Shown: piece by piece, positions 2,364-20,663 of the stretch
Layout: every line of letters begins with the position of its first letter
Numbering within the stretch: the first letter of the stretch is position 1
NCBI GenBank assembly: GCA_051013385.1
Contig: CP143274.1
Span: 27,157-51,156 of the forward strand
DNA length: 24,000 nt
Reading direction: 5' to 3'
DNA from: Phormidium sp.
GTDB lineage: Bacteria > Cyanobacteriota > Cyanobacteriia > Cyanobacteriales > Aerosakkonemataceae
Position numbers and translations under genes: made by a program
The notes under the pieces: generated by a model
What the model was told of the DNA's origin: nothing
What the model saw: the letters and a program-made list of their open reading frames with translations, nothing else
The model's database searches: none

Positions 2364-5300
2364 ATGCTTAGTGCCATTATTAAATGGGCGATCGCTCGTC
2401 GCTGGTTAGTCATCCTCGGTGCAATTATCGTCACCTTTTGGATTTTTCGCACCATCATCCAGATGCCTCTGGATGTCTTTCCCAGCTTTGCACCTCCCCA
2501 AGTCGAAATTCAAACTGAAGCCCCCGGACTCGCTCCCGAAGAAGTCGAATCTTTAGTCACCTTACCAATTGAAAGTTCGATTAACGGGACTCCCGGAGTT
2601 ACAGCAGTACGCTCTTCCAGTGCATCAGGAATCTCGGTAGTCAAAATTATATTTAATTGGGGAACCGAGATTTATCAGGCCCGCCAGTTAGTAACAGAGC
2701 GATTGCAACAAGCTCAAAGTAAGCTGCCTGAAGGTGTGGAAACCCCACAAATTTCTCCCACCAGTTCTCCTGTTGGCACCGTATTGCAATACGCCTTTAC
2801 ATCTGAAAGCACTCCTTTAATGGAAGTGCGACGCATAGTTGATTGGCAAGTAACAAACCGCATCTTAGCGGTTCCTGGCGTCAGTCAAGTAGTTGCTTAT
2901 GGTGGCGATATTCGTCAGTATCAAGTATTGATTGACCCAGAGAAGTTGAAAGCCTTTAACGTCACTTTAGATGACATTGTAGAAGCAGCTAAAGCCGCAA
3001 ATGTTAATGCTCCAGGTGGCTATTTAATCACTCCCGACAGAGAAAAGTTAATTCGGGGAATTGGGCGGATTGAATCTATTGAAGAATTACAGCAATCAGT
3101 CATTACTGCCCGCAATGGTACGCCTGTAAAAATCTCTGATATTGCTGATGTACAAATTGGTGCGGCTATCAAACGGGGAGATGGCAGTTTTAACGGTCAA
3201 AAGGCCGTAATTTTGATGATTAACAAACAGCCGCAAGCCGACACTCCCACTGTTACCCGTGCTATTGAAGCAGCAATGGAAGAAGTGAAAGCAGGTTTAC
3301 CCAAAGACATTAAAGTTACCCCAACCTTCCGACAAGAAAATTATATTGATTCTTCGATTGAAAATGTCAGAGAAGCTTTATTTGAAGGCAGCATTATTGT
3401 TGCTATTATTTTAATTCCATTTTTAATGAATTGGCGCAACCTGGCAATTTGCTTAACAGCCCTTCCCTTGTCTTTATTAGTTGGAGTTCTACTTCTAAAT
3501 TGGGTAGGCCAAGGTTTAAATACAATGACTTTGGGAGGGTTAGCGGTAGCCATTGGTTCAGCAGTTGACGATGCCATTGTGGATGCTGAGAATGTCTACC
3601 GCAACCTGCGAGAAAACAAGTACTTACCTAATCCACGTCCAGTTTTAGATGTAGTATTTGATGGCTGTCAAGAGGTAAGAGATTCAGTATTTGGAGCTAC
3701 AGTTATTACCATTGTTGTCTTCGCTCCAGTATTTGCTTTAACGGGGGTAGAAGGAAGCATTTTTATTCCGATGGGGTTGGGTTATATGGCAGCAGTTATT
3801 GCTTCTAGCATCACAGCATTGACGGTGACTCCGGCTTTATGTGCTATTCTTTTGCCTTACGGTAATTTGCCAGAAATAGAACCTTGGGTTGCCAGATTTT
3901 TTAAGCGGCTTTATTATCCTTTGTTAACGTTTTCAATGAAGCTTTCAGGAATTATTTTAGTTATAGCCGCTGCTAGTTTAGTGGCAGCAGTTGTAATAGT
4001 TCCTTCTTTTGGAAGAGTGTTTCTACCAGAGTTTCAAGAGCAAACTTTAGTCAATACTTTAACTCTTTATCCAGGTGTATCTCTAGAAGCTACCAATGCC
4101 GCTGGAGAAGCACTTCAGGCAGCACTTAAAGATGACTCTAGATTTCCTTACGTGCAGTTGCGTTCGGGACGTGCGCCAGGAGATGCGGACGCAGCGGGGG
4201 TGAATTTAGCACACTTGGATATTGAGTTGAGCGATGAAGGGATGAAAGATAGGGAAGGGACGCTGGAAAAGCTGCGAGAAGAGTTTAATAAACTACCAGG
4301 AGTTGCACCGAATATTGGCGGTTTTATTTCTCACCGAATGGATGAAGTCTTGTCTGGAGTTAGGAGTGCCATTGCCGTCAAAATTTTCGGTTCCGAATTA
4401 GAGCAACTTCGCACTATTGGCAGCCAAGTCAATGAAGTGATGAAAACTGTTGAAGGAATTGTAGATTTGCAACTTGAACCCCAAGTTCCAGTCGAACAGA
4501 TACAGATTAAGTTTAACCGTTCTGCTGCTTCTCGATATGGTTTGACAGTTGGAAAACTCTCCGAAATCATTGAAACAGCGCTCAATGGGCGAGTGGTATC
4601 TCAAGTATTAGAAAAACAACAAACTTTCGACTTAGTTGTCTGGTTAAAATCAGATGCCCGTCAAAATCTGGATACCATTCGCAATTTGTTAGTTGATACT
4701 CCTGATGGGATTAAAGTTCCATTAGCACAAGTTGCCACCATTGACAATGGCACGGGGCCTAGCACCATCAACCGAGAAAATGTTTCCCGTTTAATTGTTG
4801 TTTCGGCTAATGCTAGCGGCAGAGATTTGCGCTCTATTGTCAATGAAATTCGGGAAAAAGTGAATCAGCAAGTACAAGTTCCTGCTGGTTACTATATTCA
4901 GTATGCAGGGCAATTTGAGGCCCAAGAAAGAGCAACACAAAACATCCTCCTCTTCAGTGCTATAGCTTTTGTAGCTATTACAGTCATCATGTATCTTTCT
5001 GTCAAATCAAATCCATTCCCTCTACCGCCATGATTATGATTAACTTACCCTTAGCCTTGGTGGGGGGAGTATTTTCAGTGGCGATGACTGGAGGAATTAT
5101 TTCTATCGCCTCTCTAGTCGGCTTTGTTACTCTGTTTGGAGTGGCTACTCGTAACGGGTTGTTGCTAGTAGATAATTACAATACAAAATCTGCTGAAGGA
5201 ATGCCTTTAAAAGACCTTATTATTAAAGGGTCGATGGAACGGCTTAATGCGATTTTGATGACTGCTTTTACCTCGGCTTTAGGCTTAGCACCGTTAGTAG

Positions 5301-5494
5301 TAGAGGGTGGGCCAGGTAAAGAGATTTTGCAACCACTTTCGATAGTCGTGTTGGGTGGATTGTTTACTTCTACGGCATTGACGCTGTTAGTTTTACCGGC
5401 CTTGTATGCCAAATTTGGGAAATTTTTGCTGCCGAAGCGAACTATGCCAGTTGTTGAGGACGAGAGAGCAGTTGGAGCCGTCTTTGAGCGGTAA
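2364..5494 (+). pseudogene. CusA/CzcA-family heavy-metal efflux RND permease, frameshifted (889-aa plus 154-aa ORFs)
   Basis: The two consecutive ORFs 2364..5033 and 5030..5494 together look like one ~1041-aa HME-RND pump. Supporting strings are MLSAIIKWAIARRWLVILGAIIV, AVAIGSAVDDAIVDAENVYRNL and the C-terminal LNAILMTAFTSALGLAPLV. The frame switches at a CAAAT CAAAT tandem duplication (5003-5012). Deleting one copy gives a continuous ...MYLSVKSIPSTAMIMINLPLALVGG.... Confidence 0.85.
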
Positions 5495-5575
5495 TCCATC
5501 CCATATATTGCTAAAAATTTTCGTTTTAGCTAAGTTTTTTAGATTTGCAATTGTTTCAAGTTAGGAGCGAAACGT

Positions 5576-6073
5576 ATGAAATCTGTCAAGTCTCTACTGA
5601 TGGTTCTAGGTAGTGTAAGCTTGATTTTCCTGGGAGCTTGTGCTAACAGTAACCAAGCCACTAACCCAGAGAATAGCCCGAAAAGTACCCCACCAGCTGA
5701 GTCAGCTGCACAAACGACTACCCCAGCCAAAACTGGTTCATCCGGTCATGCCGCAGTCCCTCAAAAAGGTGGTCAAGTTGTCGAGTCAGGTCCCTACCAT
5801 TTAGAGTTTGTCCCTGAAAAAGAAGCTAATGGAACTCATTTAGATTTCTATTTGCAAAGAGGGGACAATCACGAAGCAATACCTAACGCAAAAGTCACAG
5901 CTCAAGTTCAGCTACCAGATGGGACTCAAAAAACAGTTCCCCTCACCTATGACGCTGCGGGTAAACACTACGCAGCTTTGCTTCCTGGACAGTTAGCTGG
6001 TCAATATCAGGTGAAAATTACCTCTAATATTAATGGGGAAAAGGTAGATGGTCGTTTTTCTTTCAATCAATAA
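5576..6073 (+). CDS. Small periplasmic lipoprotein, function unknown (metal-island associated)
   Basis: AGGAG RBS at 5563-5567 and ATG at 5576. Signal peptide with lipobox (SLIFLGAC), a Pro/Thr/Ser-rich linker, then a ~100-aa beta-rich domain (YHLEFVPEKEANGTHLDFYLQ...QYQVKITSNINGEKVDGRFSF). It occupies the position of the third gene of a copBAC-like unit. Confidence 0.6.
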   Translation: MKSVKSLLMVLGSVSLIFLGACANSNQATNPENSPKSTPPAESAAQTTTPAKTGSSGHAAVPQKGGQVVESGPYHLEFVPEKEANGTHLDFYLQRGDNHEAIPNAKVTAQVQLPDGTQKTVPLTYDAAGKHYAALLPGQLAGQYQVKITSNINGEKVDGRFSFNQ

Positions 6074-6082
6074 TCTCTAGAC

Positions 6083-6349
6083 TTCGAGTCAGCTAATTTA
6101 GTACTCGCCGAAGATGACCCCCTGGATGTTGTGCGAACCCTCAAGCTGGCTCAAGCCACTTACTCCAAAATGGTACGAAACCTATTTTGGGCGACTGGAT
6201 ACAACGTTTTAGCAATTCCTTTAGCTGCTGGAGTTGCCTACCCCATAGGTCTTTTGCTGTCTCCAGCTGTAGGAGCTTTGTTCATGAGTCTTTCCACTGT
6301 AATTGTGGCAATCAACGCCGTAACGTTACGTCGAGTCAAGATGGCCTAA
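6083..6349 (+). pseudogene. C-terminal remnant (~88 codons) of a heavy-metal P1B-type ATPase
   Basis: Translation is ESANLVLAEDDPLDVVRTLKLAQATYSKMVRNLFWATGYNVLAIPLAAGVAYPIGLLLSPAVGALFMSLSTVIVAINAVTLRRVK. This is the conserved end of CopA/ZntA-type pumps, covering the last two TM helices. There is no upstream ATPase sequence, and the frame is closed by the TAA at 6071-6073. Confidence 0.75.
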
Positions 6350-6384
6350 GAAGTTACAGTAAATTTTTTGAGATTGGAGCATCA

Positions 6385-7290
6385 ATGAAACTATTTTTCA
6401 CGACAATTGCTGCGGTTTCTACCCTATTACTCGCTCAAGGTTGTTCGCCATCTGTGCAATCAAGGGAAACATCGAACTCAGCTGCAACAAAACAGCGCCA
6501 AGAACTTTCGATGGGTAATGAGGAAGCACATAACTCTGCTAAATCGAATCCTCATGGAGGGCATTCGATGGAACATGGGGAGAATTCAGCTCAAGTTCAA
6601 GCTAAACTCACTACTCCAACAAACATTACTCCCAATACTCCCGTTACGTTGGCAATTGATATTCGAGACTCAGATGGAAAAGCGATCGCTAAATTTGACA
6701 CCTTTCAAGAAAAACTGATGCACCTGATTGCTGTTAGCGATGACCTTCAGTTTTTCAATCATATTCATCCCACCTATAAAGGGAACGGACGCTTTGAAGT
6801 TGAAGCCAGTTTTCCCCAACCAGGTGGTTACACGCTTTTCAGCGATTACAAACCATCTGGGAAAACAGAACAAGTCTCGGTTCTGAAAACTCAAGTTCCT
6901 GGAAACAGCCCATCTGCCCCAGCAATAGACTTAAATAGCTCTAAAACTTTCGCTGACACTAAGGCTAATCTGACCTTCTCTCAACCTGCATTGAAAGCTG
7001 GGCAAGAAGTTATGTTGGTGTTCAATTTACAAGAAGCTGCCAGCAATCAACCCGTTAAAGACTTGCAGCCTTACTTGGGAGAACGGGGGCATTTAGTCAT
7101 CATTAAACAATCATCCCCATTGACAAAAGCCGACTACATTCATGCTCATGCTCATGCGATGGAAAATATGCCACCTGGGGAAGTTCATTTTATGACCAGT
7201 TTCCCCAAACCAGGAAAATATAAGCTCTGGGGGCAGTTCAATCGGAATGGCAGAATCGTGACCGCTGATTTCTGGGTAAATGTCCAATAA
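6385..7290 (+). CDS. His-rich secreted (lipo)protein, putative periplasmic metal-binding protein
   Basis: The listed ORF 6187..7290 overlaps the ATPase relic. A GGAG RBS (6376-6379) plus ATG 6385 gives MKLFFTTIAAVSTLLLAQGCSPS, a signal with a lipobox-like Cys. His clusters are present: HNSAKSNPHGGHSMEHGEN, FFNHIHP, DYIHAHAHAMENMPPGEVHF. Confidence 0.7.
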   Translation: MKLFFTTIAAVSTLLLAQGCSPSVQSRETSNSAATKQRQELSMGNEEAHNSAKSNPHGGHSMEHGENSAQVQAKLTTPTNITPNTPVTLAIDIRDSDGKAIAKFDTFQEKLMHLIAVSDDLQFFNHIHPTYKGNGRFEVEASFPQPGGYTLFSDYKPSGKTEQVSVLKTQVPGNSPSAPAIDLNSSKTFADTKANLTFSQPALKAGQEVMLVFNLQEAASNQPVKDLQPYLGERGHLVIIKQSSPLTKADYIHAHAHAMENMPPGEVHFMTSFPKPGKYKLWGQFNRNGRIVTADFWVNVQ

Positions 7291-7301
7291 CTGCGCTAAT
7301 A

Positions 7302-7318
7302 TTTCATCTTGATTTCAT
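7302..7318 (+). promoter_or_regulatory. Direct-repeat box 1: TTTCAT-CTTGA-TTTCAT (putative OmpR-family regulator site)
   Basis: Two identical hexamers sit 11 bp apart centre to centre. A TAATAG -10-like hexamer lies at 7339-7344. The box is upstream of the small peptide ORF at 7481. Confidence 0.45.
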
Positions 7319-7480
7319 CAAGCTATGTCATTGTGAATTAATAGACAGATTCATCTCTAGTTGATATGGAAGATGGGAGATAGAATATCTGTATAGAAAT
7401 TGGCTATAGCTCCTTGACCTCCATCCACCTGAAGACTTGAATCTGTTAGACATGAACACTGGTTATCAGGAGAATTCACC

Positions 7481-7639
7481 ATGATTTTGATGAAGCATAG
7501 TAAAAGCATCATAAGTGCAGCTGGTATCAGTCTGGCATTGCTGGCGCTGACCGCTGGTGCTAGTCTGGCACAAGACCAGCCCCAAACGAGCGGCTGCCCT
7601 TGCTGCCAGCGAATGATGGGACAAGGTTCTTCTAGATAA
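7481..7639 (+). CDS. Unlisted 52-aa secreted Cys/Met-rich peptide
   Basis: AGGAG at 7468-7472 lies 8 nt before ATG 7481. Translation is MILMKHSKSIISAAGISLALLALTAGASLA|QDQPQTSGCPCCQRMMGQGSSR with stop at 7637-7639. It has a typical signal peptide with an A-x-A-type cleavage site. It is below the 60-aa ORF-track cutoff and is followed by a hairpin terminator. Confidence 0.45.
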   Translation: MILMKHSKSIISAAGISLALLALTAGASLAQDQPQTSGCPCCQRMMGQGSSR

Positions 7640-7742
7640 TAGGCAGGTGAGGCGGCAGCGTTCAGTCTGCAATGAGCGGTAGCCAGAACTATCAGAATCA
7701 TGCTTCACGCAGTTCAAGTAGGTACGAAAAACCGAAATATAG

Positions 7743-7773
7743 AAACCCGTTTTCTCTAAGAAAACGGGTTTTT
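7743..7773 (+). terminator. Rho-independent terminator-like hairpin
   Basis: aaacccgttttc (7743-7754) pairs perfectly with gaaaacgggttt (7760-7771) around a 5-nt loop. The T run is short (it continues to 7773). Confidence 0.55.
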
Positions 7774-7777
7774 CAGA

Positions 7778-7846
7778 CTTTAGGGGTAGTTTAATCAAAA
7801 CATCAGAATCGTAACAGCTAACTTTCAGGTAAATGTCCAACAGTAA
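7778..7846 (+). pseudogene. Relic 3' end of a paralog of the His-rich lipoprotein gene
   Basis: This segment translates L*G*FNQNIRIVTANFQVNVQQ*. It aligns with the end of the intact gene at 7225-7290, LWGQFNRNGRIVTADFWVNVQ*. The Trp and Gln codons have become TAG. Confidence 0.55.
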
Positions 7847-7854
7847 CGCTGATA

Positions 7855-7871
7855 TTTCATCTTGATTTCAT
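7855..7871 (+). promoter_or_regulatory. Direct-repeat box 2: TTTCAT-CTTGA-TTTCAT
   Basis: The 17-mer is identical to box 1. TAATAG lies at 7891-7896. The box is upstream of the gene at 8108. Confidence 0.45.
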
Positions 7872-8107
7872 AGTTATCTGTCAATCTAGTTAATAGGGGG
7901 AGTATGCCCGTTTGGCAAAGACATCATTAGCTGGATGAATCCATCAACAGCAAGGCAGCTATCTAAATAACCCCCGCTATTGAGTGAGTAGAGGGGAAAT
8001 TGACTATGGATTTATAAAGTCGAGATGCCTCCCCATTAATAACAGGCTCATTTATTCACAGTGAGTCTGAAACTTGGTTGACGTAGTTGATTCCTTGGAA
8101 AGTCAAA

Positions 8108-8602
8108 ATGAAGAGAATACTGATGAACAATTTGATTTATACGGGTGCAGCATTTCTCCTAGCAATTGCATCTTCCGTTCCGGCTGTCTGGGCAACTGGA
8201 AGACCAAGCGATGCTAAAGTTTCTCATTTAGTTGATAGTGCTGCCTATCCTGATAGCGCTACTGTTCAGAATGCTACCCATCAGTTTGAGGTTCACGTTC
8301 AAGGAAAAGCTCTTTCAGAACTTTCGATTGATTTACCAGAAGAAGTAAGCATCAGTTATGGAATTAAGGTAAAAAATCAATTGGGTCAAAAAATTTCAGC
8401 AACAGTTTCTATTAATGACAGAAAAGCTACTGTGGTTTTTTCCCAACCTGTAGCTCCTGAGACAGTACTGTCAGTCTCTCTACAAGGCGTTCAGACTCCA
8501 GGCTATGACCAAATTTTGCTGTACCGATTCTACGCTAAAAAGGTTGGTCTAACTGCTGAAATTCCACTTGGTACAGCTCGAATTCATACCTACAGAGGAT
8601 AA
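8108..8602 (+). CDS. Secreted protein of unknown function, paralog 1 (possibly DUF2808-like)
   Basis: The listed ORF begins at a TTG (8087). ATG 8108 (MKRILMNNLIY...) or ATG 8123 aligns with the paralog's start. Signal peptide AFLLAIASSVPAVWA. The core is ATHQFEVHVQGKALSELSIDLPEEVSI...RKATVVFSQPVAPETVLSVSLQGV. The family name is a recollection only. Confidence 0.6.
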   Translation: MKRILMNNLIYTGAAFLLAIASSVPAVWATGRPSDAKVSHLVDSAAYPDSATVQNATHQFEVHVQGKALSELSIDLPEEVSISYGIKVKNQLGQKISATVSINDRKATVVFSQPVAPETVLSVSLQGVQTPGYDQILLYRFYAKKVGLTAEIPLGTARIHTYRG

Positions 8603-8615
8603 AGAGACGCTGCTG

Positions 8616-8632
8616 CTTCTTCCTGATTTTAT
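8616..8632 (+). promoter_or_regulatory. Direct-repeat box 3 (degenerate): CTTCTT-CCTGA-TTTTAT
   Basis: It has the same 6-5-6 geometry and the central CCTGA of box 4. TAAATA lies at 8651-8656, at a distance similar to that seen at boxes 1 and 2. It is upstream of the gene at 8694. Confidence 0.3.
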
Positions 8633-8693
8633 TCAAGGGATTTAGGCGAATAAATAGCGAGTTCATTAAGTTAATTGTTCAAGGAGAACCGCA

Positions 8694-9173
8694 ATGAAAA
8701 AGCTGATTTATGCAGGTGTAGCATTTACCCTAATAATAGCCGCTTCAATTTCCTCTGCTAGGGCAGCTGGAAGCTTACGGAATGCCAATGCTCCTCACAT
8801 TGTCCATAGTGGCTCGCATACTAGTAATCCTCGTTTTCTTGATGCTACTCATCATTTTGAAATTCACGTTCAAGGGCCTGCTCTTTCAGAACTTTCAATT
8901 GACTTACCAGAGGATTTGAGCATTCGTAGGGGAATTGAGGTAGAAAATAAATCGGGTCAGAGAATCCCGGCGACCGTTTCTATCAGAGATAGAAAAGCTA
9001 CAATAGTTTTCTCTCAACCTGTACCTCCTGAGACAACGCTATCAATCAAAATGCAAGGTGTTAATGCTCGATTTTATCGGAGCATTAGGCAGTACATGGT
9101 CTATAGCAAGATGGTTGGTTTGAATGCAGAAATTCCACTTGGTACAGTTCGGATTCAAACCTCCTCTCGATAA
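8694..9173 (+). CDS. Secreted protein of unknown function, paralog 2
   Basis: AGGAG RBS. Signal peptide MKKLIYAGVAFTLIIAASISSARA. The core ATHHFEIHVQGPALSELSIDLPEDLSI...RKATIVFSQPVPPETTLSIKMQGV is roughly two-thirds identical by eye to 8108..8602. Confidence 0.7.
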   Translation: MKKLIYAGVAFTLIIAASISSARAAGSLRNANAPHIVHSGSHTSNPRFLDATHHFEIHVQGPALSELSIDLPEDLSIRRGIEVENKSGQRIPATVSIRDRKATIVFSQPVPPETTLSIKMQGVNARFYRSIRQYMVYSKMVGLNAEIPLGTVRIQTSSR

Positions 9174-9287
9174 AGAGTTTTGGTAGTCAAATTGATGTAT
9201 TCTCAGCTGTGCTGCGTAACCAGTACAGTCGAGAGTTTCTTGCATCATTGTAAGCTTGATTGGGTAAACCCCAAAAAAGGACTGGTA

Positions 9288-9304
9288 TTTCATCCTGATT
9301 TCAC
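9288..9304 (+). promoter_or_regulatory. Direct-repeat box 4: TTTCAT-CCTGA-TTTCAC
   Basis: It has the same 11-bp-spaced hexamers and lies ~200 bp upstream of the response-regulator gene. It is preceded by gggtaaac, which resembles the ggtaaatg preceding boxes 1 and 2. Confidence 0.4.
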
Positions 9305-9504
9305 AACTACCTGTTAATCTACAAAGTAATGGCTCAATAGACTTCTGACATATACTCCTTTTCATTGACTTTTTAATCTTCACACTGAATTTAGCAAGGA
9401 GTCTACTGAGCTTTTCTTGATAAAAGTTATTGATTAAGTCGTTTTTTGAGAAAAAGCAGAAAGCCTGTAAAAAAAATCAAACTGACAGGTGACAAATTGA
9501 TTCT

Positions 9505-10209
9505 ATGAGAGTACTGCTAGTTGAAGATGAGCCAGACCTGGGTGCCGCAATTAAACGAACCTTAAATCAGCACAAGTATGTGGTTGACTGGGCGCTCGAC
9601 GGCACTGAAGCTTGGAACTACCTAGACAACCCGAAAACAAAGTATACGCTAGCTATTTTTGACTGGTTGATACCAGGAATATCAGGTTTGGAACTGCTGC
9701 GGCGATTGCGTGCTAGAAAAAATCCCCTTCCAGTGTTAATGCTTACAGCAAAAGACAGAATGGAAGATAAAATAACTGGTTTAGATGCGGGGGCAGATGA
9801 TTATCTGGTCAAGCCGTTTGGTATGGCGGAATTGCTAGCACGGTTGCGAGCTTTGCAAAGACGCTCGCCTCAAATCCAACCGGAACAACTTCATGTAGGT
9901 ACTCTCACTTTGGACTACGCCACTCGAAGTGTTTATCGTCTCGCTCACAACGATGAAAAGCAGGAAATTCCCCTCACTAATAAAGAATTTCAGCTACTCG
10001 AATATTTTATGAAACACCCTAACCAAATTGTCACCAGCGATCAAATCCGCAATCAGGTTTGGGAAATGAGCGCAGATGCGATCAGTAATGTGGTAGCCGC
10101 TCAAGTACGCTTGCTCAGACGCCAACTAGCATCGGTAGGAAGCGCTCATTTGATTGAAACTATTCACGGTACTGGCTACCGTTTCAATACATCTGATGAA
10201 CCAAAATAA
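9505..10209 (+). CDS. OmpR/PhoB-family response regulator (CopR/CusR-like)
   Basis: Receiver domain MRVLLVEDEPDLG...FDWLIPGISGLELLRRLR...PVLMLTAKD...GADDYLVKPF. Winged-helix output domain LTNKEFQLLEYFMKHPNQIVTSDQIRNQVW...IETIHGTGYRF. Confidence 0.9.
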   Translation: MRVLLVEDEPDLGAAIKRTLNQHKYVVDWALDGTEAWNYLDNPKTKYTLAIFDWLIPGISGLELLRRLRARKNPLPVLMLTAKDRMEDKITGLDAGADDYLVKPFGMAELLARLRALQRRSPQIQPEQLHVGTLTLDYATRSVYRLAHNDEKQEIPLTNKEFQLLEYFMKHPNQIVTSDQIRNQVWEMSADAISNVVAAQVRLLRRQLASVGSAHLIETIHGTGYRFNTSDEPK

Positions 10210-11494
10210 GTTATTCTCTCAAACTCGTCTGCGATTAGCGACTTCCTATGCCGTTGTGATGGGCTTTATCTTAGCTCTATGCGGTTTGGGTGTATATGAG
10301 GCGATTGTTCACGCTCACTGGCAAACTTTAGACCGAGAACTGGAAACGGTTGCAGGAACTTTACATGACAGTATTGAAAACAAACTCAAGCTACCCGGAC
10401 GTTTGGAACCGATAGAAGAGAAACTGTTTTCTGTCTCTCCCTCGAAACGCCACACTTTAGGAGCAATTTACCAAGGCAACTATTATGTGCGGTTGTTAGA
10501 TCGTTCCGAACGAATTGTTGCGGAAGCTGGTTCCGTACCCCTTGGTTTACCTGTCACATCACCTAAAGTGACTTGGCAGAATCTCAAGGATAGCGAAGGG
10601 AATCGTTATCATCAAATTTCTCTATCCCTGCATACCCAGGATAATCTTTCTTGGGGATATATGCAGATGGGGCGGAGTCTCAAAGACCTCGATGACTACC
10701 TCAAAACTGTTAAATTGGTATTGTTTTTTGGATTGCCGATCGCGATGATTTTGGTGGCTGGTTCTAGTTGGTGGCTGGCAGGATTGGCTATGCAACCAAT
10801 TTACCAATCTTATCGCCAGATTCAACAGTTTACAGCTGATGCTGCTCACGAGTTACGAACGCCTTTAGCTGCTACACAAGCGACCGTTGAATCAGCATTG
10901 GAAATGCCTCAGATGGATGAACTTGAGGTACGTGATATCTTAAGAACTATAGAGCGTCAAAATCGCAGGCTAATTCAGCTGGTTGCCGATTTGTTGTTGC
11001 TGGCACGCCTGGAGCGACAAGCTGTACCGATGCGACTGAAAGCTTGTTGCTTGAATGATTTGGTTGGCGATTTAATCGAGGAATTTGAAGCTTTGGCGAT
11101 CGCTAATGGTTTAACTCTGGCTGCTGATATTCGGGGGAACCACCCAGTAGAGGTAGTGGGTGACGAAGAGCAACTGTATCGCTTGGTTTCTAATTTGATG
11201 GTGAATGCCATCCAGTATACTCCTGCCGGAGGGAAGGTAATAGTGGTTTTATACCGCAGCGATCGCTATGCTGCGATCGAAGTTCAAGATACTGGTATTG
11301 GGATTGCACCCACCGAACAAAAGCGGATTTTCGATCGCTTTTATCGAGTTAATACCGATCGTTCTCGCAGTACAGGTGGGTCAGGTTTAGGATTAGCAAT
11401 TGCTCAAGCTATTGTTCAGGCACATGGAGGCGATCTACAAGTACAAAGCGAATTGAGCAAAGGTAGTACTTTTACGATTAGTCTACTAGTTTGA
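10196..11494 (+). CDS. Sensor histidine kinase, two TM helices with a periplasmic loop (CopS/CusS-like)
   Basis: The likely start ATG 10196 (MNQNKLFSQTRLRLATSY...) overlaps the regulator's stop by 14 nt. H-box FTADAAHELRTPLA, N-box LVSNLMVNAIQYT, G1 VQDTGIGI, G2 GGSGLGLAIAQ. The TM helices are VVMGFILALCGLGVY and LVLFFGLPIAMILVAGSSWWLAGLA. Confidence 0.9.
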   Translation: MNQNKLFSQTRLRLATSYAVVMGFILALCGLGVYEAIVHAHWQTLDRELETVAGTLHDSIENKLKLPGRLEPIEEKLFSVSPSKRHTLGAIYQGNYYVRLLDRSERIVAEAGSVPLGLPVTSPKVTWQNLKDSEGNRYHQISLSLHTQDNLSWGYMQMGRSLKDLDDYLKTVKLVLFFGLPIAMILVAGSSWWLAGLAMQPIYQSYRQIQQFTADAAHELRTPLAATQATVESALEMPQMDELEVRDILRTIERQNRRLIQLVADLLLLARLERQAVPMRLKACCLNDLVGDLIEEFEALAIANGLTLAADIRGNHPVEVVGDEEQLYRLVSNLMVNAIQYTPAGGKVIVVLYRSDRYAAIEVQDTGIGIAPTEQKRIFDRFYRVNTDRSRSTGGSGLGLAIAQAIVQAHGGDLQVQSELSKGSTFTISLLV

Positions 11495-11772
11495 ATGAAT
11501 TTGCGATTTTGTATCTCTATCAGAGCATTACTACAATGCTTGCTCGATCGCTCCTGGTAACTAGCAAATTGAGTTAATTACACAAAAGACTGGGCTACAA
11601 GTCTTCTCTAGTAAAAAATATTCAAAAAATTAATGTGTAATTAATCCTGTCCAATTACTTATTTTGTTAGATTCAATTGGCCTCTCAATATATAGCGTTT
11701 CTCTGACTCATGAGGTACATATTGTTGGCTAACCATAGCGTAATATAAAACCTTGTTTATTATCCATCTACC

Positions 11773-13698
11773 CTAAAATTTTTCGCTCTTCATATTGGCA
11801 AAATGGTCTTGTAATAGTTTGTGGAAGAATTGATAGCGACCCCCAATTTTTATGATAAATAAGCGTTCTTCTGCATAATGGAGAAAGCGAGCGTAGTTCC
11901 AAGGTATGTAACCATTGCGCCAAAGCAAGAATCGCAACAAAAAATGTTGAAGACAAGCCATTCCACCTGTTAATAGTGCTATCGTTGGTACTACTGTCGC
12001 TCCAGTAATTAGTGTGGAAAAAGCTATTTTATCTGTCAAAATAATTGTTAATCCGAATCCCAAACAACTTATTAGTATAAATATTAATGTGATGCGTGTT
12101 GAATAAAAAATATCTTGATTGGGAGCTTTTCTTTGTTTGATTTCTAGCCGCTCACTCGTGAAAGCTAAATTACCTAACAAAACTAAACTAAATATGCATC
12201 CGAAAATTAATCTGGGAATTAATTGCGTATTTACTCCAAATGCCAAACTTAAAATTAATACACTCACTCCGTAACCTAAAAATAATTTATAGAGCTTTAC
12301 TTGAGGAAATTTAAAAGTCTCAATTGGTGTGATTTGCTTATACAAGTATTTAAAAGGAAATGATGCTACTATAGAGCCGATTACAAGTCCAATAATATCC
12401 GAAAATGACAACTGTTGTGTAATGGTAGGCAAGACGGTGGTTAAAGAAAAGATTAATATAATAATTATTAAAAGAATAATATTATAAATTCTTAAATCAG
12501 TTGGCTTTAACCAATTTGGTTGCATCTTTTCAATTAAAAATTCAGTTTGAGACTCTCTTTGTAACTGTTGCGCTAACCAAATAAGCCAAAGTCTGGTTTG
12601 ATGAGAGCTAGGAAACTTTTGTTTAATGTATGCTTTACTATCAATGTCCCGGCTCAACATTCGTCCTACGTAGCTATCAAGCAAATATTGAATTCGGTCT
12701 TCTACAGACGTTAGCTTCTGCCATTGTTCAAAAGATATTTCTTCATAGGCTAGAATGGAAACATTAAGCAGCAAAGGATTTCTAACTAACGGTAATAGAT
12801 TGGAGTTGTTGCTAATACTTTGCCAAAAGTAGGTATGGCTAATATTAGCTAAGTACTCCTGAAGTTGAGAGTTAGTTAAGGATTTTAAGCTGATGGAGTT
12901 GCTGAGTTCAAGGCGAGTATCATAATTTTCATATTCACCTAAGCGGCTACAAACAACTAGATGTTTAGGACGGTATTCTCCCTTCATTAGCTCGTTAATT
13001 GCCTGCACGCAAAGTTCTTGACGAGTTGATTGTAGTTCATCCAAACCATCCAATAGTGGTATAATTCGTTGATTCTTTAGCCATTCTCCGATCAACCCCT
13101 TTAAGGGTTTAAACTGTAATTCGATTGTAGTTACCAACCAATCAGCTATAGTTTGGCGATCGTCCCTCCAAGATGAAAGGTTGCACACCCAAGGAATTGG
13201 ATAATTAGGATCGGCTTCAGCACGACTAATCAGAGTTTCAGCTAGTTCTAACAGAGTAGTAGTCTTTCCCGCTCCTGGCGCACCCAGGATTAACAATCTA
13301 CCTGCAATTTCTTCTAAGTCAAAGATTTCAATAACGTTAGTATTCGATGGTAAAAGAAAGGGAGGTTTTTCGCCGATCTTAACTTCAGTATTCCAAAGCT
13401 GCTTTACCTGCTGAGGTTGTAACTCCTTAACCAAGTTTATCGGCTCAGTATAAAGTAGAGATTTCTTTAGCCGATCGCTAACCATTTGCTTCATTTCCTC
13501 TAAGAGGAATTGTTCTTTACGCGATCGAACTAAATTGTTTCCTTTTGCAAACTGCTGACCCAGAAAAATATTATTATTATAGATATCGCCGCCTATTTGA
13601 TTAGCATAAACATTTGTTGCATCTACAATACCGCCCGCAAATTGAGAACCTCTTAGGTCATGATTAGAAACTTTTTTAGGATCTGGCGCTTCAGACAT
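11773..13698 (-). CDS. NACHT-family P-loop NTPase with an N-terminal G/N/Q-rich motif and a C-terminal polytopic membrane domain
   Basis: Walker A is LILGAPGAGKTTTLLELA and Walker B is RIIPLLDGLDEL. The C-terminal ~230 aa contain at least 6 hydrophobic helices, including NIILLIIIILIFSLTTVL, IIGLVIGSIVASF, LGYGVSVLILSLAFGV, LIFGCIFSLVLLGNLAF, LIFILISCLGFGLTIIL and TGATVVPTIALLTGGMA. I prefer ATG 13698 (MSEAPDPKKVSNHDLRGSQFAGGIVDA...). The listed GTG 13773 would overlap the upstream gene. Confidence 0.8.
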   Translation of the reverse strand: MSEAPDPKKVSNHDLRGSQFAGGIVDATNVYANQIGGDIYNNNIFLGQQFAKGNNLVRSRKEQFLLEEMKQMVSDRLKKSLLYTEPINLVKELQPQQVKQLWNTEVKIGEKPPFLLPSNTNVIEIFDLEEIAGRLLILGAPGAGKTTTLLELAETLISRAEADPNYPIPWVCNLSSWRDDRQTIADWLVTTIELQFKPLKGLIGEWLKNQRIIPLLDGLDELQSTRQELCVQAINELMKGEYRPKHLVVCSRLGEYENYDTRLELSNSISLKSLTNSQLQEYLANISHTYFWQSISNNSNLLPLVRNPLLLNVSILAYEEISFEQWQKLTSVEDRIQYLLDSYVGRMLSRDIDSKAYIKQKFPSSHQTRLWLIWLAQQLQRESQTEFLIEKMQPNWLKPTDLRIYNIILLIIIILIFSLTTVLPTITQQLSFSDIIGLVIGSIVASFPFKYLYKQITPIETFKFPQVKLYKLFLGYGVSVLILSLAFGVNTQLIPRLIFGCIFSLVLLGNLAFTSERLEIKQRKAPNQDIFYSTRITLIFILISCLGFGLTIILTDKIAFSTLITGATVVPTIALLTGGMACLQHFLLRFLLWRNGYIPWNYARFLHYAEERLFIIKIGGRYQFFHKLLQDHFANMKSEKF

Positions 13699-13744
13699 AC
13701 ATTTAGCAAAAGATTGTAGATAGGTTAATCTAATCTGAAAATCT

Positions 13745-15513
13745 CTAGGGAGCGGGGTTGTCGATGTTACCACCTATGTGTTGGGAATGAACTATCTCGG
13801 CATCTACAATTCCACCAGCTATTTGAGAGTGTTGTAGGTCGTAATTAGAGGATTTAACCACAGCTTTTGCCTCTACAGTGATGGGCTTATTAGCCAATAT
13901 CTTAACAATTTCCGTGAGATTTGCATTTTGCTGACGATGAGTAGCTATCTGTTCATCCTTAGCTTCTAACTGGTATCTATATTTTTCTTCTAAGGCTTTT
14001 AATTGCAGTTCGTATTCTTGCTTGAGGTATTTCTCTATTTCTGCCTTATTTGCATTAAAAGGAACATTAACACGAATGATAAAAGCACCATCATTCTTGT
14101 TTTCAAGAGCTTGAATAGATAGCTCCTCACTACCACACTTAACTTGCAGCTTTTGAAATGAATTAAGGAATGCCTGCCAATCAATGCCGTTACGGAAAAC
14201 TAGATCGACTGTTGCTACTGCTTTTTGGAATAATTTAGTAAACTCTCCTGAAGCAAAGTTTCCACTACTAGGGCGGCGTTCTTGTTCTCTTTCTTGAAGA
14301 TAAACATAGTCACAAATCACTCCATTCAACTGGGTGGTACTATTAATATTCCAATCTTGAATGCAGGCTCCAGTTAATGTTGCTTGCCGAAAGGTACTAC
14401 CCATTACTAGAGCCGTAGATAAATTGGCCTGAGTGAGATTAGCATTACACAAGTTGCATTCTCTAAGATCGGCTTCTGCCAGATTAGCTTTAGCTAGATT
14501 AGTGTTTGCCAATATTGCGTTACTCAAAGATGCTTTCCGAAGGTCTGCTTTACTGAAGTTTGCTCCACTGAGGTCTGCCTCCTCTAGTAAAGTCGCCACA
14601 AGTAAGGATTCAACTAACTGTGCATCTCTGAGATCGGCTTTTGTAAGATACGCCGCTGTGAGGTTAGCTTGATTTAAAGAAGCCAATATAAGGGATGATT
14701 CCCACATTTGTGCGCTAACGAGAATTGCTTCTGTAAGATTAGCTCGATCGAGGTTGCACTTGTTGAGAATTGCCCCCTTCAGGTTGGCTTTGTACAAAAC
14801 GGCATTGCTGAGATTAGCTTGGGTGAGGTTCGTTATAGTAAGGAATGCGCCACTGAGATCTGCTCCTGTTAAGTCTGCTCCTGTTAAGTCTGTCCTTGTC
14901 AAGTTTGCTTGGCGAAAGTTTACTCCACTGAGATTAGCTTCTTGAAGATTAACCAGACAGAGATTTGCTCCACAAAAATTGGCTTCCGTAAAGCGTGCGC
15001 CGCGAAGTTCAGCAATGCTGAGGTTAGCTCCCTGAAAATTTGCTCTGCTAAGGTTAGCTCGATTCAGGATGGCCATTCCTAACTCTGCTCCCCTGAGATC
15101 TGCCTCACTCAAATTAGCTTTCTTGAAGTTAGCATTTCCCATATCTGCTTTCTGGAGATATGCTCCACTGAGATTAGCTTTGCTAAAATCTGCCTCCGTG
15201 AGTTTGGCTTCAGTGAAGTTAGTTTCTTTTAAGTAAGCATTTTGGAAGTTAGTTCTATCAAGGTCTGCTCGACGGAAGTTGGCTCTGCTAAGATTTGCCC
15301 CATTAAACTTTGCCCATTTGACAATAGCCCTGCTAAAATCGATTCCACAGAGGTCTGTATTGCTAATATCAGCACTTTTAAAGTTAGTTCCATCCAAGGA
15401 AGCGCCATTAAGTTTTATCCTACTAAGCTTGGCACTCCGAAAGTCAGCGCCCCTAAGATTAGCATTCGAGAGGTCAGCACCATTTAGGGTGACTATGCCA
15501 AGGTCTGTTTGGC
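13745..15513 (-). CDS. Pentapeptide-repeat protein, main (3') portion; the 5' end is separated by an antisense group II intron
   Basis: There are about 65 consecutive A(D/N)LxX pentads (ANLSRANFRRADLDRTNFQN...). A ~190-aa non-repeat domain follows (CIQDWNINSTTQLNGVICDYVYLQ...). The C-terminus is SSNYDLQHSQIAGGIVDAEIVHSQHIGGNIDNPAP*. Upstream of the listed TTG 15397 the frame stays open and pentapeptide-like (QTDLGIVTLNGADLSNANLRGADFRSAKLSRIKLNGASL) as far as the intron boundary at 15513. Confidence 0.85.
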
Positions 15514-16061
15514 GTGCGATTCGTTGTAGCCGAATCAGTGGAAATAATCCACGAAATAACGCTACTCACAACCGTTTAGAGGTTGTGAAACTCTCAAGAT
15601 GATGAGGGTGCAAGCCCCTCCCATCAGGTAAGGATGTGACTCCCAATCTAGCCACAGCGACCAGACTCGGAATTCTGGAGACTGAAGCTGGCAGTAGGGC
15701 GCAATCAGAGCTTGACCGAAAGCACACTGGCGCTAGGGGAGTTCCCAAGGTGAAACAGAGCCTAAAAAAGCAGCTTAAGGCCGAAACCGGACGGAAAAGA
15801 ATAACCCCCCGGATTTCACTAGAGTAAAAACCCGCTAGCTTATGCTAAAGAGACTAGCCTTACCAAGGGTTTCTAGTAGCTGAAGTGGCTACGCCTAAAG
15901 GAACAAGACAATCACTTGAGGGAACGAAGAAAAACGAATTTAGGGTCTTGGGAAAGGTCGAACCCCAGGTAGGCGAGACGAGACGCAGAAACCCCTAGAT
16001 TCGGGTAGGATTCAGCGTAATTGCTGAAAGGCAATCAGAGTAAACACTACAGGAGTAGAGC

Positions 16062-17564
16062 ATGATTGGGCGCAGTCTTAGTGCTAGCGAATTTTGGAAG
16101 AAATTACCTTGGAAGAAGTTTCGACGTAATCTATTCCGCCTGCAAGTGAGGGTTTACAAAGCTATTAGAGCCAATGACCTGCGTAAAGCTAAGTCATTAA
16201 TGAAGCTAATCCTGAAGGCCAGAGCAGCAAGATTACTGGCAATCCGTCAAGTAACACAACTCAATGCAGGGAAGAAAACCCCCGGTATCGACGGCAAAGC
16301 GTCCCTGACACATCAGGAACGCTTAGAGTTGAGTACACAACTCAAGGGTAATGTTAACACCTGGAGACACCAAGGGCTGAGAGAAATTCCCATACCTAAG
16401 AAAGATGGGTCAACCCGGATACTGAAAGTCCCCACTATAGGCGATAGAGCTTGGCAATGCCTAGTGAAATACGCCATAGAACCTGCACATGAGGCTACAT
16501 TCCATGAAAGAAGCTATGGGTTTAGACCAAGTAGAGCAGCACACGACGCTCAGAAATTCTTGTTTCTAAATCTAAGCTCCAAAGTAAACGGAAACATCAA
16601 GAGAGTCATCGAACTAGATATCGAGAAATGCTTTGACCGAATAAGTCACACCGCCATAATGGACAAACTCATAGCCCCATCGGGCATCCGCAACGGTATT
16701 TTCCGGTGCCTAAAATCAGGAGTCAACCCAGGGTTCCCAGAACAGGGAACGCCCCAAGGCGGAGTAGTTAGCCCACTGCTAGCGAACATTGCATTAAACG
16801 GTATCGAAAAGATACACCAATCAATAAGATACGCCGACGATATGGTATTCATACTGAAACCAAAAGATGACGCTCAAAAGATACTTGAGGAAATCAGTCA
16901 GTTCCTTGCTCAAAGAGGTATGAAGATTAGTGAAAAGAAGACAAAAATAACCGCAGCGACAGATGGATTTGACTTTCTAGGATGGCACTTCAAAGTGCAA
17001 AAGAACGGAAAGTTTCGGAGTCAGCCTTCAACGGAAAACTTCAAAAAGTTCCGAGGTAAAGTCAAGAAAATCGTCAATAACTCGAATTATGGGGCAAAGG
17101 TAAAAGCCGAAAAGCTTGCACCTATTGTCAGAGGTTGGAGAAACTACCACCAGTTCTGTAAGTTGGATGGCAACAGATTCAGTTTATCGTCACTCCGCGA
17201 AAGAACTTGGCGAGTATTCAACAAAGAAAAGAAGCTTAACCGATACCAGGTAAAAGAACTGGTCAACAAAGCATTCCCGGCTGTCCCCTACCACGAAAAC
17301 AAATTCATAAATGTGAAAGGGGGTAAGTCACCTTTCGATGGCGATATCCTGTACTGGGCAAAGCGTAACAGCAATTTATACGACGGTACAACCTCAAAGA
17401 TGCTCAAAAAGCAGAACCATACTTGTGGACATTGTGGGCTTCTCTTTATCGGAGAAGAAAAGGTGCATCTACACCACATCGACGGTAATCATAGCAACGG
17501 GAAGGCTAACAATCTGATGGTTGTCCACGAAAGCTGTCACGACTACATCCACATGAGCAATTAA
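16062..17564 (+). CDS. Group II intron reverse transcriptase/maturase with a C-terminal HNH endonuclease domain
   Basis: RT blocks are TPGIDGKASL, IPIPKKDGSTRILKVPTIGDRAWQ, SYGFRPSRAAHDA, IELDIEKCFDRISH, GTPQGGVVSPLLANIAL and the YADD motif (IRYADDMVFI). The maturase X region has GWRNYH. The HNH region is CGHCG...HLHHIDGNHSNGKANNLMVVHESCHDYIH. Confidence 0.95.
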   Translation: MIGRSLSASEFWKKLPWKKFRRNLFRLQVRVYKAIRANDLRKAKSLMKLILKARAARLLAIRQVTQLNAGKKTPGIDGKASLTHQERLELSTQLKGNVNTWRHQGLREIPIPKKDGSTRILKVPTIGDRAWQCLVKYAIEPAHEATFHERSYGFRPSRAAHDAQKFLFLNLSSKVNGNIKRVIELDIEKCFDRISHTAIMDKLIAPSGIRNGIFRCLKSGVNPGFPEQGTPQGGVVSPLLANIALNGIEKIHQSIRYADDMVFILKPKDDAQKILEEISQFLAQRGMKISEKKTKITAATDGFDFLGWHFKVQKNGKFRSQPSTENFKKFRGKVKKIVNNSNYGAKVKAEKLAPIVRGWRNYHQFCKLDGNRFSLSSLRERTWRVFNKEKKLNRYQVKELVNKAFPAVPYHENKFINVKGGKSPFDGDILYWAKRNSNLYDGTTSKMLKKQNHTCGHCGLLFIGEEKVHLHHIDGNHSNGKANNLMVVHESCHDYIHMSN

Positions 17565-17573
17565 GATTGTCGG

Positions 17574-17607
17574 GAGCCGGGTGCGGTGAAAGTCGCACGC
17601 CCGGAGC
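17574..17607 (+). ncRNA. Group II intron domain V-like hairpin
   Basis: GAGCCGGGUGCGGUGAAAGUCGCACGCCCGGAGC has the AGC triad, a GAAA tetraloop and a 2-nt AC bulge in the canonical places. In my hand fold, two basal pairs (A2/G33 and G3/A32) are non-Watson-Crick. Confidence 0.7.
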
Positions 17608-17650
17608 TAAATGAGAGGGGCGAGGAATAATACCCTCCCTCGACTCAACC

Positions 17651-17789
17651 TAAAGTCAATGCCGCGTAGGTTTAGATTGCTAAAGTCTGCTCCGCAAAGT
17701 TCGGGTTTAATTTCAGGATTGTTTAACCGCCACTCATTCCAAACCTCTATCCCCTGCTTGAGCAGAGCGAGATGTTTCTCATTGATCAT
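17651..17789 (-). pseudogene. 5' segment (46 codons plus 1 nt) of the pentapeptide-repeat gene, cut off by the intron
   Basis: ATG 17789 gives MINEKHLALLKQGIEVWNEWRLNNPEIKPELCGADFSNLNLRGIDF, a typical N-terminus of cyanobacterial pentapeptide proteins. The rest of the listed ORF (RLSRGRVLFLAPLI) is read-through into antisense intron sequence. Confidence 0.75.
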
Positions 17790-17835
17790 CTTATTGCACC
17801 AAAACTTAAGTTTGTTTCGTCTACAAATAAGATGA

Positions 17836-18010
17836 TTACTTGCCTTCTTTCCAACCTTCTAAACTTGCTATAAGGATATTAACTAAAGGATGGTTAATCA
17901 ACTCTTTAAAAGCTTCAATACTCCCTGCTTTTAGCGCTCTAACTACTCGCGCCTTGAGAGATGGATTACTCTCAATTTGCTCGATCGCTTCCGTTACAAC
18001 TGTCTGTTTC
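17836..18010 (-). pseudogene. 3' segment of the IS-split gene (C-terminal helical tail)
   Basis: The minus-strand translation from 18003 is TVVTEAIEQIESNPSLKARVVRALKAGSIEAFKELINHPLVNILIASLEGWKEGK*, with the stop at 17836-17838. It continues ...NTQEEKQT from 19341 in frame once the IS and one target-duplication copy are removed. Confidence 0.75.
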
Positions 18011-20212: not shown

Positions 20213-20213
20213 A

Positions 20214-20663
20214 TTACCTTACTCCACAACAGGGACAATAAATACCTATTACCTTGTTCAAGAACCTAGTCTTAGCAGTTATTTGGCAGCAATTAAGATT
20301 AACTGTCTCTAGTTCTTCCTGTTCAAATAAAATTTTCTGTACTTCCATTTTTAGGGGTTTATCAGCCTTAAACTTTACATTTTTACTTCCTTTGAAGTTT
20401 CTCTCCAATTTTTTAACCCATTCGTTAATCATTGACTTGGCATAATTATTAGCAACAGTGTGAGCTTGTTCGATAACCTCATCTCTTAAAAAATGGCTAT
20501 GTTGATGCCGTAATCCGCAGTAAGGACAAAATATTTCAATAATATCTTCTCTTTCAAAGTCTGTTACTGTCAGTTTAAATCTATCCTCACAAAAAGGACA
20601 TTGGAGCGTAACAAACCCGTCGTTATCGCTGGGGATGGTTATTTGAAAAACTACGTCAGCCAT
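20214..20663 (-). CDS. Double zinc-ribbon-like small protein, function unknown
   Basis: 149 aa with Cys pairs CPFC...CPYC (N-terminal half) and CC...CPCC (C-terminal end). Its stop is 1 nt from the ATG of the next gene, which suggests co-translation. Confidence 0.6.
   Translation of the reverse strand: MADVVFQITIPSDNDGFVTLQCPFCEDRFKLTVTDFEREDIIEIFCPYCGLRHQHSHFLRDEVIEQAHTVANNYAKSMINEWVKKLERNFKGSKNVKFKADKPLKMEVQKILFEQEELETVNLNCCQITAKTRFLNKVIGIYCPCCGVR

Follow-up and report, generated by a model that had tools for sequence, protein, structure and literature searches.

In the CusRS, CopRS and PcoRS systems of proteobacteria, a membrane kinase senses periplasmic copper and an OmpR-family regulator induces a resistance-nodulation-division (RND) pump together with periplasmic copper-binding proteins. 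The copper box of these systems is usually described as palindrome-like, and its sequence differs from that of the boxes described here. The pho box of Escherichia coli consists of two 7-bp direct repeats with a 4-bp gap (an 11-bp period) located 10 bp upstream of the −10 element, where it replaces the −35 element; it is bound by a head-to-tail dimer of PhoB, an OmpR/PhoB winged-helix regulator that activates transcription. Giner-Lamia et al. reportedly described, in 2012, the CopRS copper-resistance system of the cyanobacterium Synechocystis and direct repeats in its promoters. CopR binds the copMRS and copBAC promoters directly (PMC4284471), the reported regulon comprises two operons with copRS transcribed behind copM (PMC13421787), and, according to a recent review, Synechocystis PCC 6803 is the only member of the phylum in which the copper response is well characterised (PMC12292863). 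Here we analysed 24,000 nt of Phormidium sp. (GenBank assembly GCA_051013385.1, contig CP143274.1, forward-strand positions 27,157 to 51,156; hereafter the window, whose own numbering is used throughout). Direct-repeat boxes at 7302, 7855 and 9288 are predicted binding sites for the regulator encoded at 9505–10209, a CopR orthologue, and would drive a copper response, a reading to which we assign a probability of about 85%.

A first-pass annotation of this DNA had proposed four boxes, and all four strings are present (7302, 7855, 9288 and 8616). Three of them are genuine by matrix score; the fourth, at 8616, is an eroded relic (−8.4 bits). Box 1 (7302–7318, + strand, TTTCATCTTGATTTCAT, 34.5 bits) is the predicted promoter of a 52-aa peptide gene. 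Box 2 (7855–7871, +), also TTTCATCTTGATTTCAT, is the top site of the window at 47.9 bits and the predicted promoter of DUF2808 paralogue 1, probably of paralogue 2 too. Box 4 (9288–9304, +, TTTCATCCTGATTTCAC, 37.8 bits) is the predicted promoter of copRS and would confer autoregulation. The scores come from a position weight matrix spanning −4 to +33 and built from 49 independent boxes from other cyanobacterial loci. When the 24-kb window was scanned with it, the runner-up to the three boxes scored 1.0 bit, in an overlapping register; 30 shuffles peaked at 13.7 bits, and all 49 training sites scored at least 21.6 bits. The boxes at 7302, 7855 and 9288 are far beyond chance. A search for TTTCATCYTGATTTCAY, with the spacer specified and up to 3 mismatches, gave 4 matches against 0.53 expected, a count reached in 1 of 100 shuffles; a loose pattern allowing 2 mismatches gave 4 matches against 6.06 expected and alone carries no significance.

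The repeat unit is 7 bp (ATTTCAT, twice) with the 4-bp spacer CYTR, giving 11 bp from centre to centre. Across 287 non-redundant boxes collected from 135 loci, A occupies −1 in 97% and +10 in 95%, and all three window boxes conform. This 7+4+7 layout accords with binding by a head-to-tail dimer of winged-helix domains of the OmpR/PhoB type, and the OmpR/PhoB-type direct-repeat geometry suggested at first pass is borne out by ATTTCAT-CYTR-ATTTCAT with its ~11-bp period in the 287 boxes. The E. coli pho box differs from the window box in its repeat (CTGTCAT rather than ATTTCAT) and in its signal (phosphate rather than a metal), and its regulator is a distant relative within the family.

The window motif is that of the Synechocystis cop promoters. 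On the plasmid pSYSX, the copM start codon has TTTCATCCTGATTTCAT 50 nt upstream of it, and the 123-nt copS-copB spacer contains TTTCATCTTGGTTTCAT; both promoters have 0 mismatches to TTTCAT-N5-TTTCAY, and their spacers (CCTGA and CTTGG) are close to those of the window boxes (CTTGA and CCTGA). Induced transcript levels were comparable between a 195-nt fragment and a PcopM fragment of 72 nt 'containing two direct repeats' (PMC4890671), and inspection of the 72 nt next to the copM start showed no direct repeat other than the ATTTCAT pair. In addition to the motif, Synechocystis and the window share an orthologous regulator and kinase, linked genes for DUF305/CopM and an HME-RND pump, autoregulation (predicted in the window) and a TG..A...T block downstream of the box. 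The window differs in that its copRS has a box of its own, in that further boxes precede the DUF2808 paralogues and the 52-aa peptide gene, and in that a box before the pump genes is missing.

The regulator (9505–10209, +; Pfam Response_reg, PF00072, and Trans_reg_C, PF00486) is an OmpR/PhoB-family response regulator 62.7% identical to CopR (slr6040) of Synechocystis PCC 6803 pSYSX by tblastn, a search that also returned 60–77% identical genes on ~40 cyanobacterial plasmids. Its recognition helix, SNVVAAQVRLLRR, is nearly invariant, reading SNVVAAQ(V/M/I)RLLR(R/K) in 7 orthologues including Synechocystis CopR. The sensor histidine kinase (10196–11494, +; Pfam HisKA and HATPase_c) is 53% identical to pSYSX CopS over 441 aligned residues that begin at CopS residue 1 and include the sensor domain. 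By these alignments, the adjacent regulator and kinase are orthologues of CopR and CopS. The best solved relatives of the regulator are OmpR/PhoB-family regulators such as DrrD (1kgs). It scores below the cut-offs of the PhoB model TIGR02154 (187 against 296 bits) and of the cztR_silR_copR subfamily model (181 against 279 bits), and it falls in an NCBIfam equivalog separate from the proteobacterial CusRS/CopRS/PcoRS regulators.

Conservation extends from the proteins to their promoters. Within 243 kb, comprising the window and orthologous plasmid loci, we found 49 perfect boxes, compared with 0 in shuffles, and every orthologous locus examined has perfect boxes upstream of genes and oriented towards them. 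Only 18 of the 287 boxes (6%) lie within an open reading frame (ORF) of at least 100 aa, against 71% of random positions, and a same-strand ORF start follows within 300 nt of 182 boxes (63%), against 13% for random positions and 45 boxes (16%) in mirrored orientation. A scatter of boxes with no link to promoters, which the first-pass annotation had named as telling against its own proposal, is thus not what the 287 boxes display. A scan with ATTTCATCYTRATTTCAT of one genome per species (185,579) placed ~73 of 80 stretches, among the matches listed and judged by record titles, in cyanobacteria, often with several boxes per 8 kb.

The genes behind these boxes recur from locus to locus. Plasmid pCC7120beta of Nostoc 7120 has a box before DUF305, a cysteine-synthase operon, copR and two DUF2808 genes including all7597; Anabaena cylindrica has boxes before three DUF2808 genes, copR and cysteine synthase; Oscillatoria nigro-viridis before 2 of 3 DUF2808 genes; and Gloeocapsa before genes for a porin, DUF2808, copR and a P-type ATPase. 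Loci of Brasilonema, Scytonema, N. cf. commune, N. carneum and Nostoc C052 hold 4–14 boxes each, and Pseudanabaena, Picosynechococcus and Acaryochloris have boxes or a one-mismatch variant beside copR. Orthologues of box 4, followed by the downstream block TGACTCAATAGA, precede the regulator gene in Nostoc 7120, Tolypothrix, A. cylindrica, Brasilonema, Scytonema, N. carneum and Phormidium ambiguum. Together with the 37.8-bit score at 9288, these boxes sustain the earlier proposal that the regulator-kinase operon is autoregulated. The assignment of the boxes to the adjacent two-component regulator, made in the same annotation, likewise holds, on the strength of the motif shared with the Synechocystis cop promoters, CopR/CopS orthology and recurrence before orthologous genes in related loci.

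Downstream of the box, four positions are conserved among the 287 boxes: T+24 (0.83), G+25 (0.77), A+28 (0.88) and T+32 (0.87). A perfect TATAAT at +27..+32 occurs in 7 of the 287. We infer that the conserved block, TG-N-NAnnnT, would be an extended −10 element whose hexamer begins 10 nt past the box, in which case the box would cover about −39 to −23 and stand in for the −35 hexamer; a −35 hexamer is absent, and the box occupies that region. On the + strand of the window, the predicted extended −10 elements are TG t CATTGT at 7326–7334 for promoter 1 (predicted start ~7341), TG t CAATCT at 7879–7887 for promoter 2 (~7894) and TG t TAATCT at 9312–9320 for promoter 4 (~9327), each placed by its fit to the positions conserved in the 287 boxes. 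CAATCT is the third commonest hexamer at +27..+32 in that set, and both Synechocystis promoters match the block (TGcCAGACT for copM and TGaAACACT for copB).

The first-pass annotation had placed −10 hexamers 18–22 nt downstream of the boxes. The letters are there (TAATAG at 7339–7344 and at 7891–7896, TAAATA ~18 nt past the 8616 site, TAATGG at 9327–9332), but they are not conserved as a −10: positions +36..+41 are A/T-rich without a TAnnnT pattern, and T occupies the last position at a frequency of only 0.18. These hexamers coincide with the predicted transcription starts and as −10 elements are probably misplaced. We also considered TGTCA at +24..+28 as a third half-site; its offset from the second repeat is 13 nt rather than 11, and its matching T and C are ~45% conserved, against 77–88% for TG, A+28 and T+32, and this candidate was rejected.

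Overlap with the −35 region is a position open to repressors too, and the regulator might on that ground be thought to bind the boxes as a repressor or roadblock. A −35 hexamer is lacking, however, the 11-bp spacing of the repeats with a 10-nt gap to the −10 is the geometry of PhoB-type activation, and Synechocystis copR mutants show reduced cop expression and are copper-sensitive (PMC12292863, PMC4284471). We consider repression very improbable and regard the boxes as predicted activator sites.

In Brasilonema and Nostoc C052, a perfect TATAAT and a hairpin-like sequence that is conserved (ACATGCTCCTCATGT) come after the CopR boxes at L017 10176, L017 10308 and L016 11147, and no ORF of at least 45 aa was found behind these three boxes. 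They are candidates for promoters of CopR-dependent small RNAs or micro-ORFs.

Boxes 1 and 2 have a history in common. They lie within a 94-nt direct repeat (7225–7318 and 7778–7871, 77% identity) that flanks the peptide cassette and includes the 3' end of the upstream gene, so their identity is partly due to common descent. In the second copy, 7778–7840 (+) is a pseudogenised version of the last ~20 codons of the 6187–7290 gene, with two in-frame stop codons. The arrangement could suggest that the repeats are functionless leftovers of a segmental duplication, since both boxes sit in this repeat beside a pseudogenised gene end. The duplication is old, however: locus L019 has a similar gene-end relic before its second box, and boxes 1 and 2 with a 3-nt flank are 20/20 identical whereas the remainder of the 94-nt repeat is ~70% identical, which argues for selection on the box. 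Box 4 is outside the repeat, and the motif, correctly oriented and placed ahead of genes, is kept in organisms ranging from Synechocystis to Nostocales and Pseudanabaena. We give the notion of inert duplicates next to no credence; the boxes are better read as CopR sites maintained by selection.

The closest locus, that of Phormidium ambiguum IAM M-71 (L141), has the same gene order at 80–93% nucleotide identity and perfect boxes 137 nt upstream of the ATG of copM, in the copM/membrane-fusion spacer, before DUF2808-1 and before copR. The peptide gene is not present at this locus. Its DUF2808-1 box (L141 9749), 11 nt past the stop codon of a 301-aa gene, is the orthologue of window box 2 and belongs to a single hybrid copy of the repeat (L141 9677–9765), in which the flank upstream of the box is that of window box 1 and the flank downstream is that of window box 2. 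The full order of box, peptide, box and DUF2808 is found in the more distant loci L018–L020, together with a gene-end relic ahead of the second box. The simplest history suggested by these alignments is an old duplication of the gene end and its CopR promoter, followed in P. ambiguum by a deletion through recombination between the repeats.

Several observations weigh against CopR control of the boxes by copper. The NCBI family model names the window regulator 'RppA', as it does Synechocystis CopR. Several cyanobacterial plasmids hold two or three regulators of this family, and therefore a paralogue could in principle use the same box. The proposed −10 hexamer opens with C or A, not T, and for that reason its assignment is not certain. 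The equation of the published two direct repeats with the ATTTCAT motif draws on this being the sole repeat seen within 72 nt of the start of copM and on its recurrence before copB. Lastly, the RND gene of the window is frameshifted, and the box in the copM/membrane-fusion spacer is missing.

The first two points bear on an alternative in which the boxes are real but are served by another paralogue of the family, for example one of the NrsR/RppA type encoded elsewhere in the genome, or respond mainly to nickel, zinc or cadmium. Related plasmids often have 2–3 family regulators, and pCC7120beta has a second rppB; in Scytonema, the gene after a boxed regulator-kinase pair is annotated 'nickel resistance protein'; PcopM responds to Zn, Cd and Ni too, more weakly (PMC4890671); and the DUF2808 protein All7597 of Nostoc 7120 increases under cadmium stress (bioRxiv 10.1101/2022.09.23.509143). 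The name itself is of little help, because the NCBIfam 'RppA' model recognises the window regulator and Synechocystis CopR alike (407 and 384 bits, respectively) and so does not separate CopR from RppA/NrsR; for annotation, this means that regulators labelled 'RppA' by NCBI beside cop genes are CopR-type. Synechocystis RppA/NrsR (sll0797) resembles the window regulator in this label and in being metal-responsive, autoregulated and located beside an efflux operon (PMC13421787). It is nickel- and redox-linked, and the motif given for it, AAMAWCTCYYWCCCC (Yu et al. 2025, as cited in PMC13421787), is, as far as that account goes, unrelated to the box and sets the two regulators apart. The window encodes a single regulator, whose gene comes immediately after a box and whose recognition helix agrees with that of CopR; the similarity of the kinase to CopS extends through the sensor domain, and the cluster holds CopM and a CopBAC-type pump. 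We judge the involvement of a different regulator or metal unlikely and retain the CopR orthologue as the predicted regulator of the three boxes.

The site at 8616–8632 (+, CTTCTTCCTGATTTTAT) has 3 mismatches within the repeats and is without TG+24/25 and T+32; it ranks 16th of 47,926 window positions by the matrix and on its sequence alone is indistinguishable from background. Its setting identifies it. The spacer between the two DUF2808 genes aligns end to end with the spacers of Oscillatoria, N. cf. commune and Brasilonema, which hold perfect boxes there, and the P. ambiguum equivalent is degenerate too (CTTATTCCTGATTTGAT), with 2 of the 6 differences in a spacer 94% identical falling inside the site. 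From these alignments, the 8616 site is a decayed relic of a real box, an eroded CopR box that probably does nothing. The spacer itself (8603–8693) is 94% identical to L141 10481–10571, and the enclosing BLAST block (window 7783–11479) is ~80% identical; something besides the dead box may be conserved here, and candidates include a leader, a processing site and a further promoter. A further degenerate match, TTTCATTGACTTTTTAA at 9360–9376, with 2 mismatches and −14.8 bits, sits between box 4 and copR, an interval in which the window has no intact second box. In Scytonema, N. cf. commune, N. carneum and Nostoc C052, a second, promoter-proximal perfect box lies before copR, ~200 nt downstream of the distal one.

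The first gene behind a box encodes the 52-aa secreted peptide (7481–7639, +), a signal peptide followed by QDQPQTSGCPCCQRMMGQGSSR. Its seven homologues (67–92% identity), which came from a large protein search, leave the signal peptide, CC, MM and GS invariant within a conserved motif Q-T-x-G-C-x-C-C-x-x-M-M-x-x-G-S; tblastn against plasmids gave no match. The closest homologues of the window proteins (92–96% identical) are on short Logan contigs; megablast of 6100–11500 against plasmids and an exact look-up of the regulator yielded no match. The peptide gene is syntenic in L018–L020, with an orthologous box before it. It is followed by a 13-bp hairpin (7743–7771, reported on the − strand), probably a terminator, whose + strand 3' arm ends GGGTTT and then TT; this is the sole terminator-like site found in 5400–11800.

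DUF2808 paralogue 1 (8108–8602, +; Pfam DUF2808) starts at an ATG at 8108, the ORF list having used a TTG at 8087, and paralogue 2 (8694–9173, +; Pfam DUF2808) is 55% identical to it. No terminator-like site was found in the 91-nt spacer between them, and paralogue 2 is therefore most simply co-transcribed with paralogue 1. Each carries a signal peptide and a TH..F.VHV segment that hardly varies, and paralogue 1 has 101 homologues, the best at 96% and 83% identity. The AlphaFold model of paralogue 1 is a 9-strand immunoglobulin-like beta-sandwich (predicted local distance difference test score 81, core above 90). Its matches in the PDB are generic, pilins and adhesins first, with the copper-binding protein YcnI of B. 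subtilis among them (template-modelling score 0.51/0.63, E = 4e-5); at such similarity the YcnI likeness of this model is a hint, not evidence, and we do not derive a function from the fold.

The leader of paralogue 1 (7872–8107, ~215–240 nt) aligns with those of three Nostocales plasmids (L007 798–1033, L009 8004–8238 and L010 5238–5467) at 79% mean column identity, box and start codon included; by BLAST, it matches P. ambiguum and otherwise short pieces only. A structured RNA in the 215-nt leader was considered and set aside, with no Rfam match and a weak consensus fold of the 4 leaders (−14.2 kcal/mol, covariation term 0). In Nostoc 7120, an identical box lies 168 nt upstream of the gene for All7597, a protein found in the exoproteome (PMC10957091).

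The genes upstream of the boxes, with the regulator and kinase, make up by homology a cyanobacterial cop island with DUF305/CopM, a membrane-fusion protein and an RND pump. The window start cuts a copM-like DUF305 gene, of which the 3' part remains (1–408, +; Pfam DUF305, E = 2.8e-25) and whose promoter would lie beyond the window. It is followed by genes for a CopB-like membrane-fusion protein of a heavy-metal RND pump (502–2199, +; Pfam HlyD_D23/CusB) and a CopA-like RND pump (2364–5494, +), the latter split into ORFs of 889 and 154 aa that match Pfam ACR_tran 1–890 and 891–1020, respectively. Behind the RND gene in every syntenic locus, L018–L020 and L141 among them, comes a gene for a 165-aa protein of unassigned function (5576–6073, +), which matched neither Pfam nor NCBIfam. 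The next gene (6187–7290, +) encodes a secreted-type 367-aa protein, weakly YtkA-like (Pfam YtkA, E = 5e-6), with 58–65% identical homologues on cyanobacterial plasmids (tblastn); homologues are ~300 aa long and align from residue 54–66, which probably puts the true start at a point downstream of 6187. A box lies 9–11 nt past the stop codon of this gene or its orthologue in the window, Brasilonema, L018–L020 and P. ambiguum.

The split in the RND gene is due to a 5-nt tandem duplication, TCAAA TCAAA, at about 5002–5011, which the intact orthologues of P. ambiguum and Scytonema lack in alignment. The split gene is either a pseudogene or a sequencing error. The first-pass annotation had seen no box upstream of the RND genes, and our scan of the copM to membrane-fusion spacer (409–501) agrees. 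This spacer is ~95 nt shorter than that of P. ambiguum, and a box is found there in P. ambiguum (L141 3116) and N. carneum (L015 509), as well as before Synechocystis copB. Unless the duplication is a sequencing error, the island may be losing its pump arm, with the secreted-protein arm and the regulator intact. In relatives, a perfect box lies about 290–520 nt upstream of where the copM fragment aligns, on the same strand, and from P. ambiguum and these other relatives we infer a copM promoter beyond the window. The idea of a compact regulon limited to four boxes does not hold, since the nearest relative has boxes before copM and the membrane-fusion gene as well.

Downstream of copS (11773–23748), the genes are mobile or defence-like: two for NACHT NTPases (11773–13773 and 22012–23748, −) and one each for a pentapeptide-repeat protein (13745–15397, −), a group II intron reverse transcriptase (16062–17564, +) and a DDE transposase (18031–19173, −). 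This neighbourhood fits a plasmid or island location of the cop cluster.

In the mechanism we propose, the CopS-like kinase would sense excess copper, and possibly other metals more weakly, and phosphorylate the regulator, which would then bind the boxes and recruit RNA polymerase. Binding by the window regulator, activation, the metal signal and the transcription starts are all predicted steps. Three units would be switched on from within the window: the 52-aa Cys/Met secreted peptide, the two DUF2808 secreted paralogues and, in positive autoregulation, copRS itself. A fourth unit, comprising copM, the RND pump genes and the 165-aa and 367-aa genes, is probably transcribed from a box located shortly before window position 1.

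The window boxes are a new instance of a known regulator-box pair, not a new kind of element. What is new here, as judged from genomic comparison, is that genes for DUF2808 secreted paralogues and for the 52-aa Cys/Met peptide carry CopR boxes across many cyanobacteria; in the literature searched, we found no report of DUF2808 or of the peptide as copper-regulated. In relatives, CopR boxes also precede genes for cysteine-synthase/SbnA-like proteins, EamA exporters, porins and P-type ATPases. In several Nostocales, a box divergent from the copR promoter lies before the cysteine-synthase/SbnA-like gene (L002 9478, L004 9503, L005 9522, L010 9437, L016 16637 and L007 6939, all −), behind which comes either a hypothetical gene of 440 aa or one for an EamA transporter. 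The unit may encode a copper-induced thiol or chelator pathway.

The 18-bp CopR box with its extended −10 could be used as a phylum-wide predictor of copper-regulated promoters. For cyanobacterial engineering, in which PcopM is already in use, the comparison also supplies compact promoters that would be induced by metals and cover a range of strengths, and it nominates the DUF2808 proteins, the CxCC-MM peptide and the YtkA-like 300-aa protein as new copper-resistance candidates. For the biology of the phylum, we lean somewhat towards the view that in filamentous and many other cyanobacteria the CopR regulon extends far beyond two operons, with a conserved core that would include multi-copy Ig-like DUF2808 proteins and a mature peptide of ~22 residues with a CxCC..MM motif as new extracellular or periplasmic copper-handling factors.

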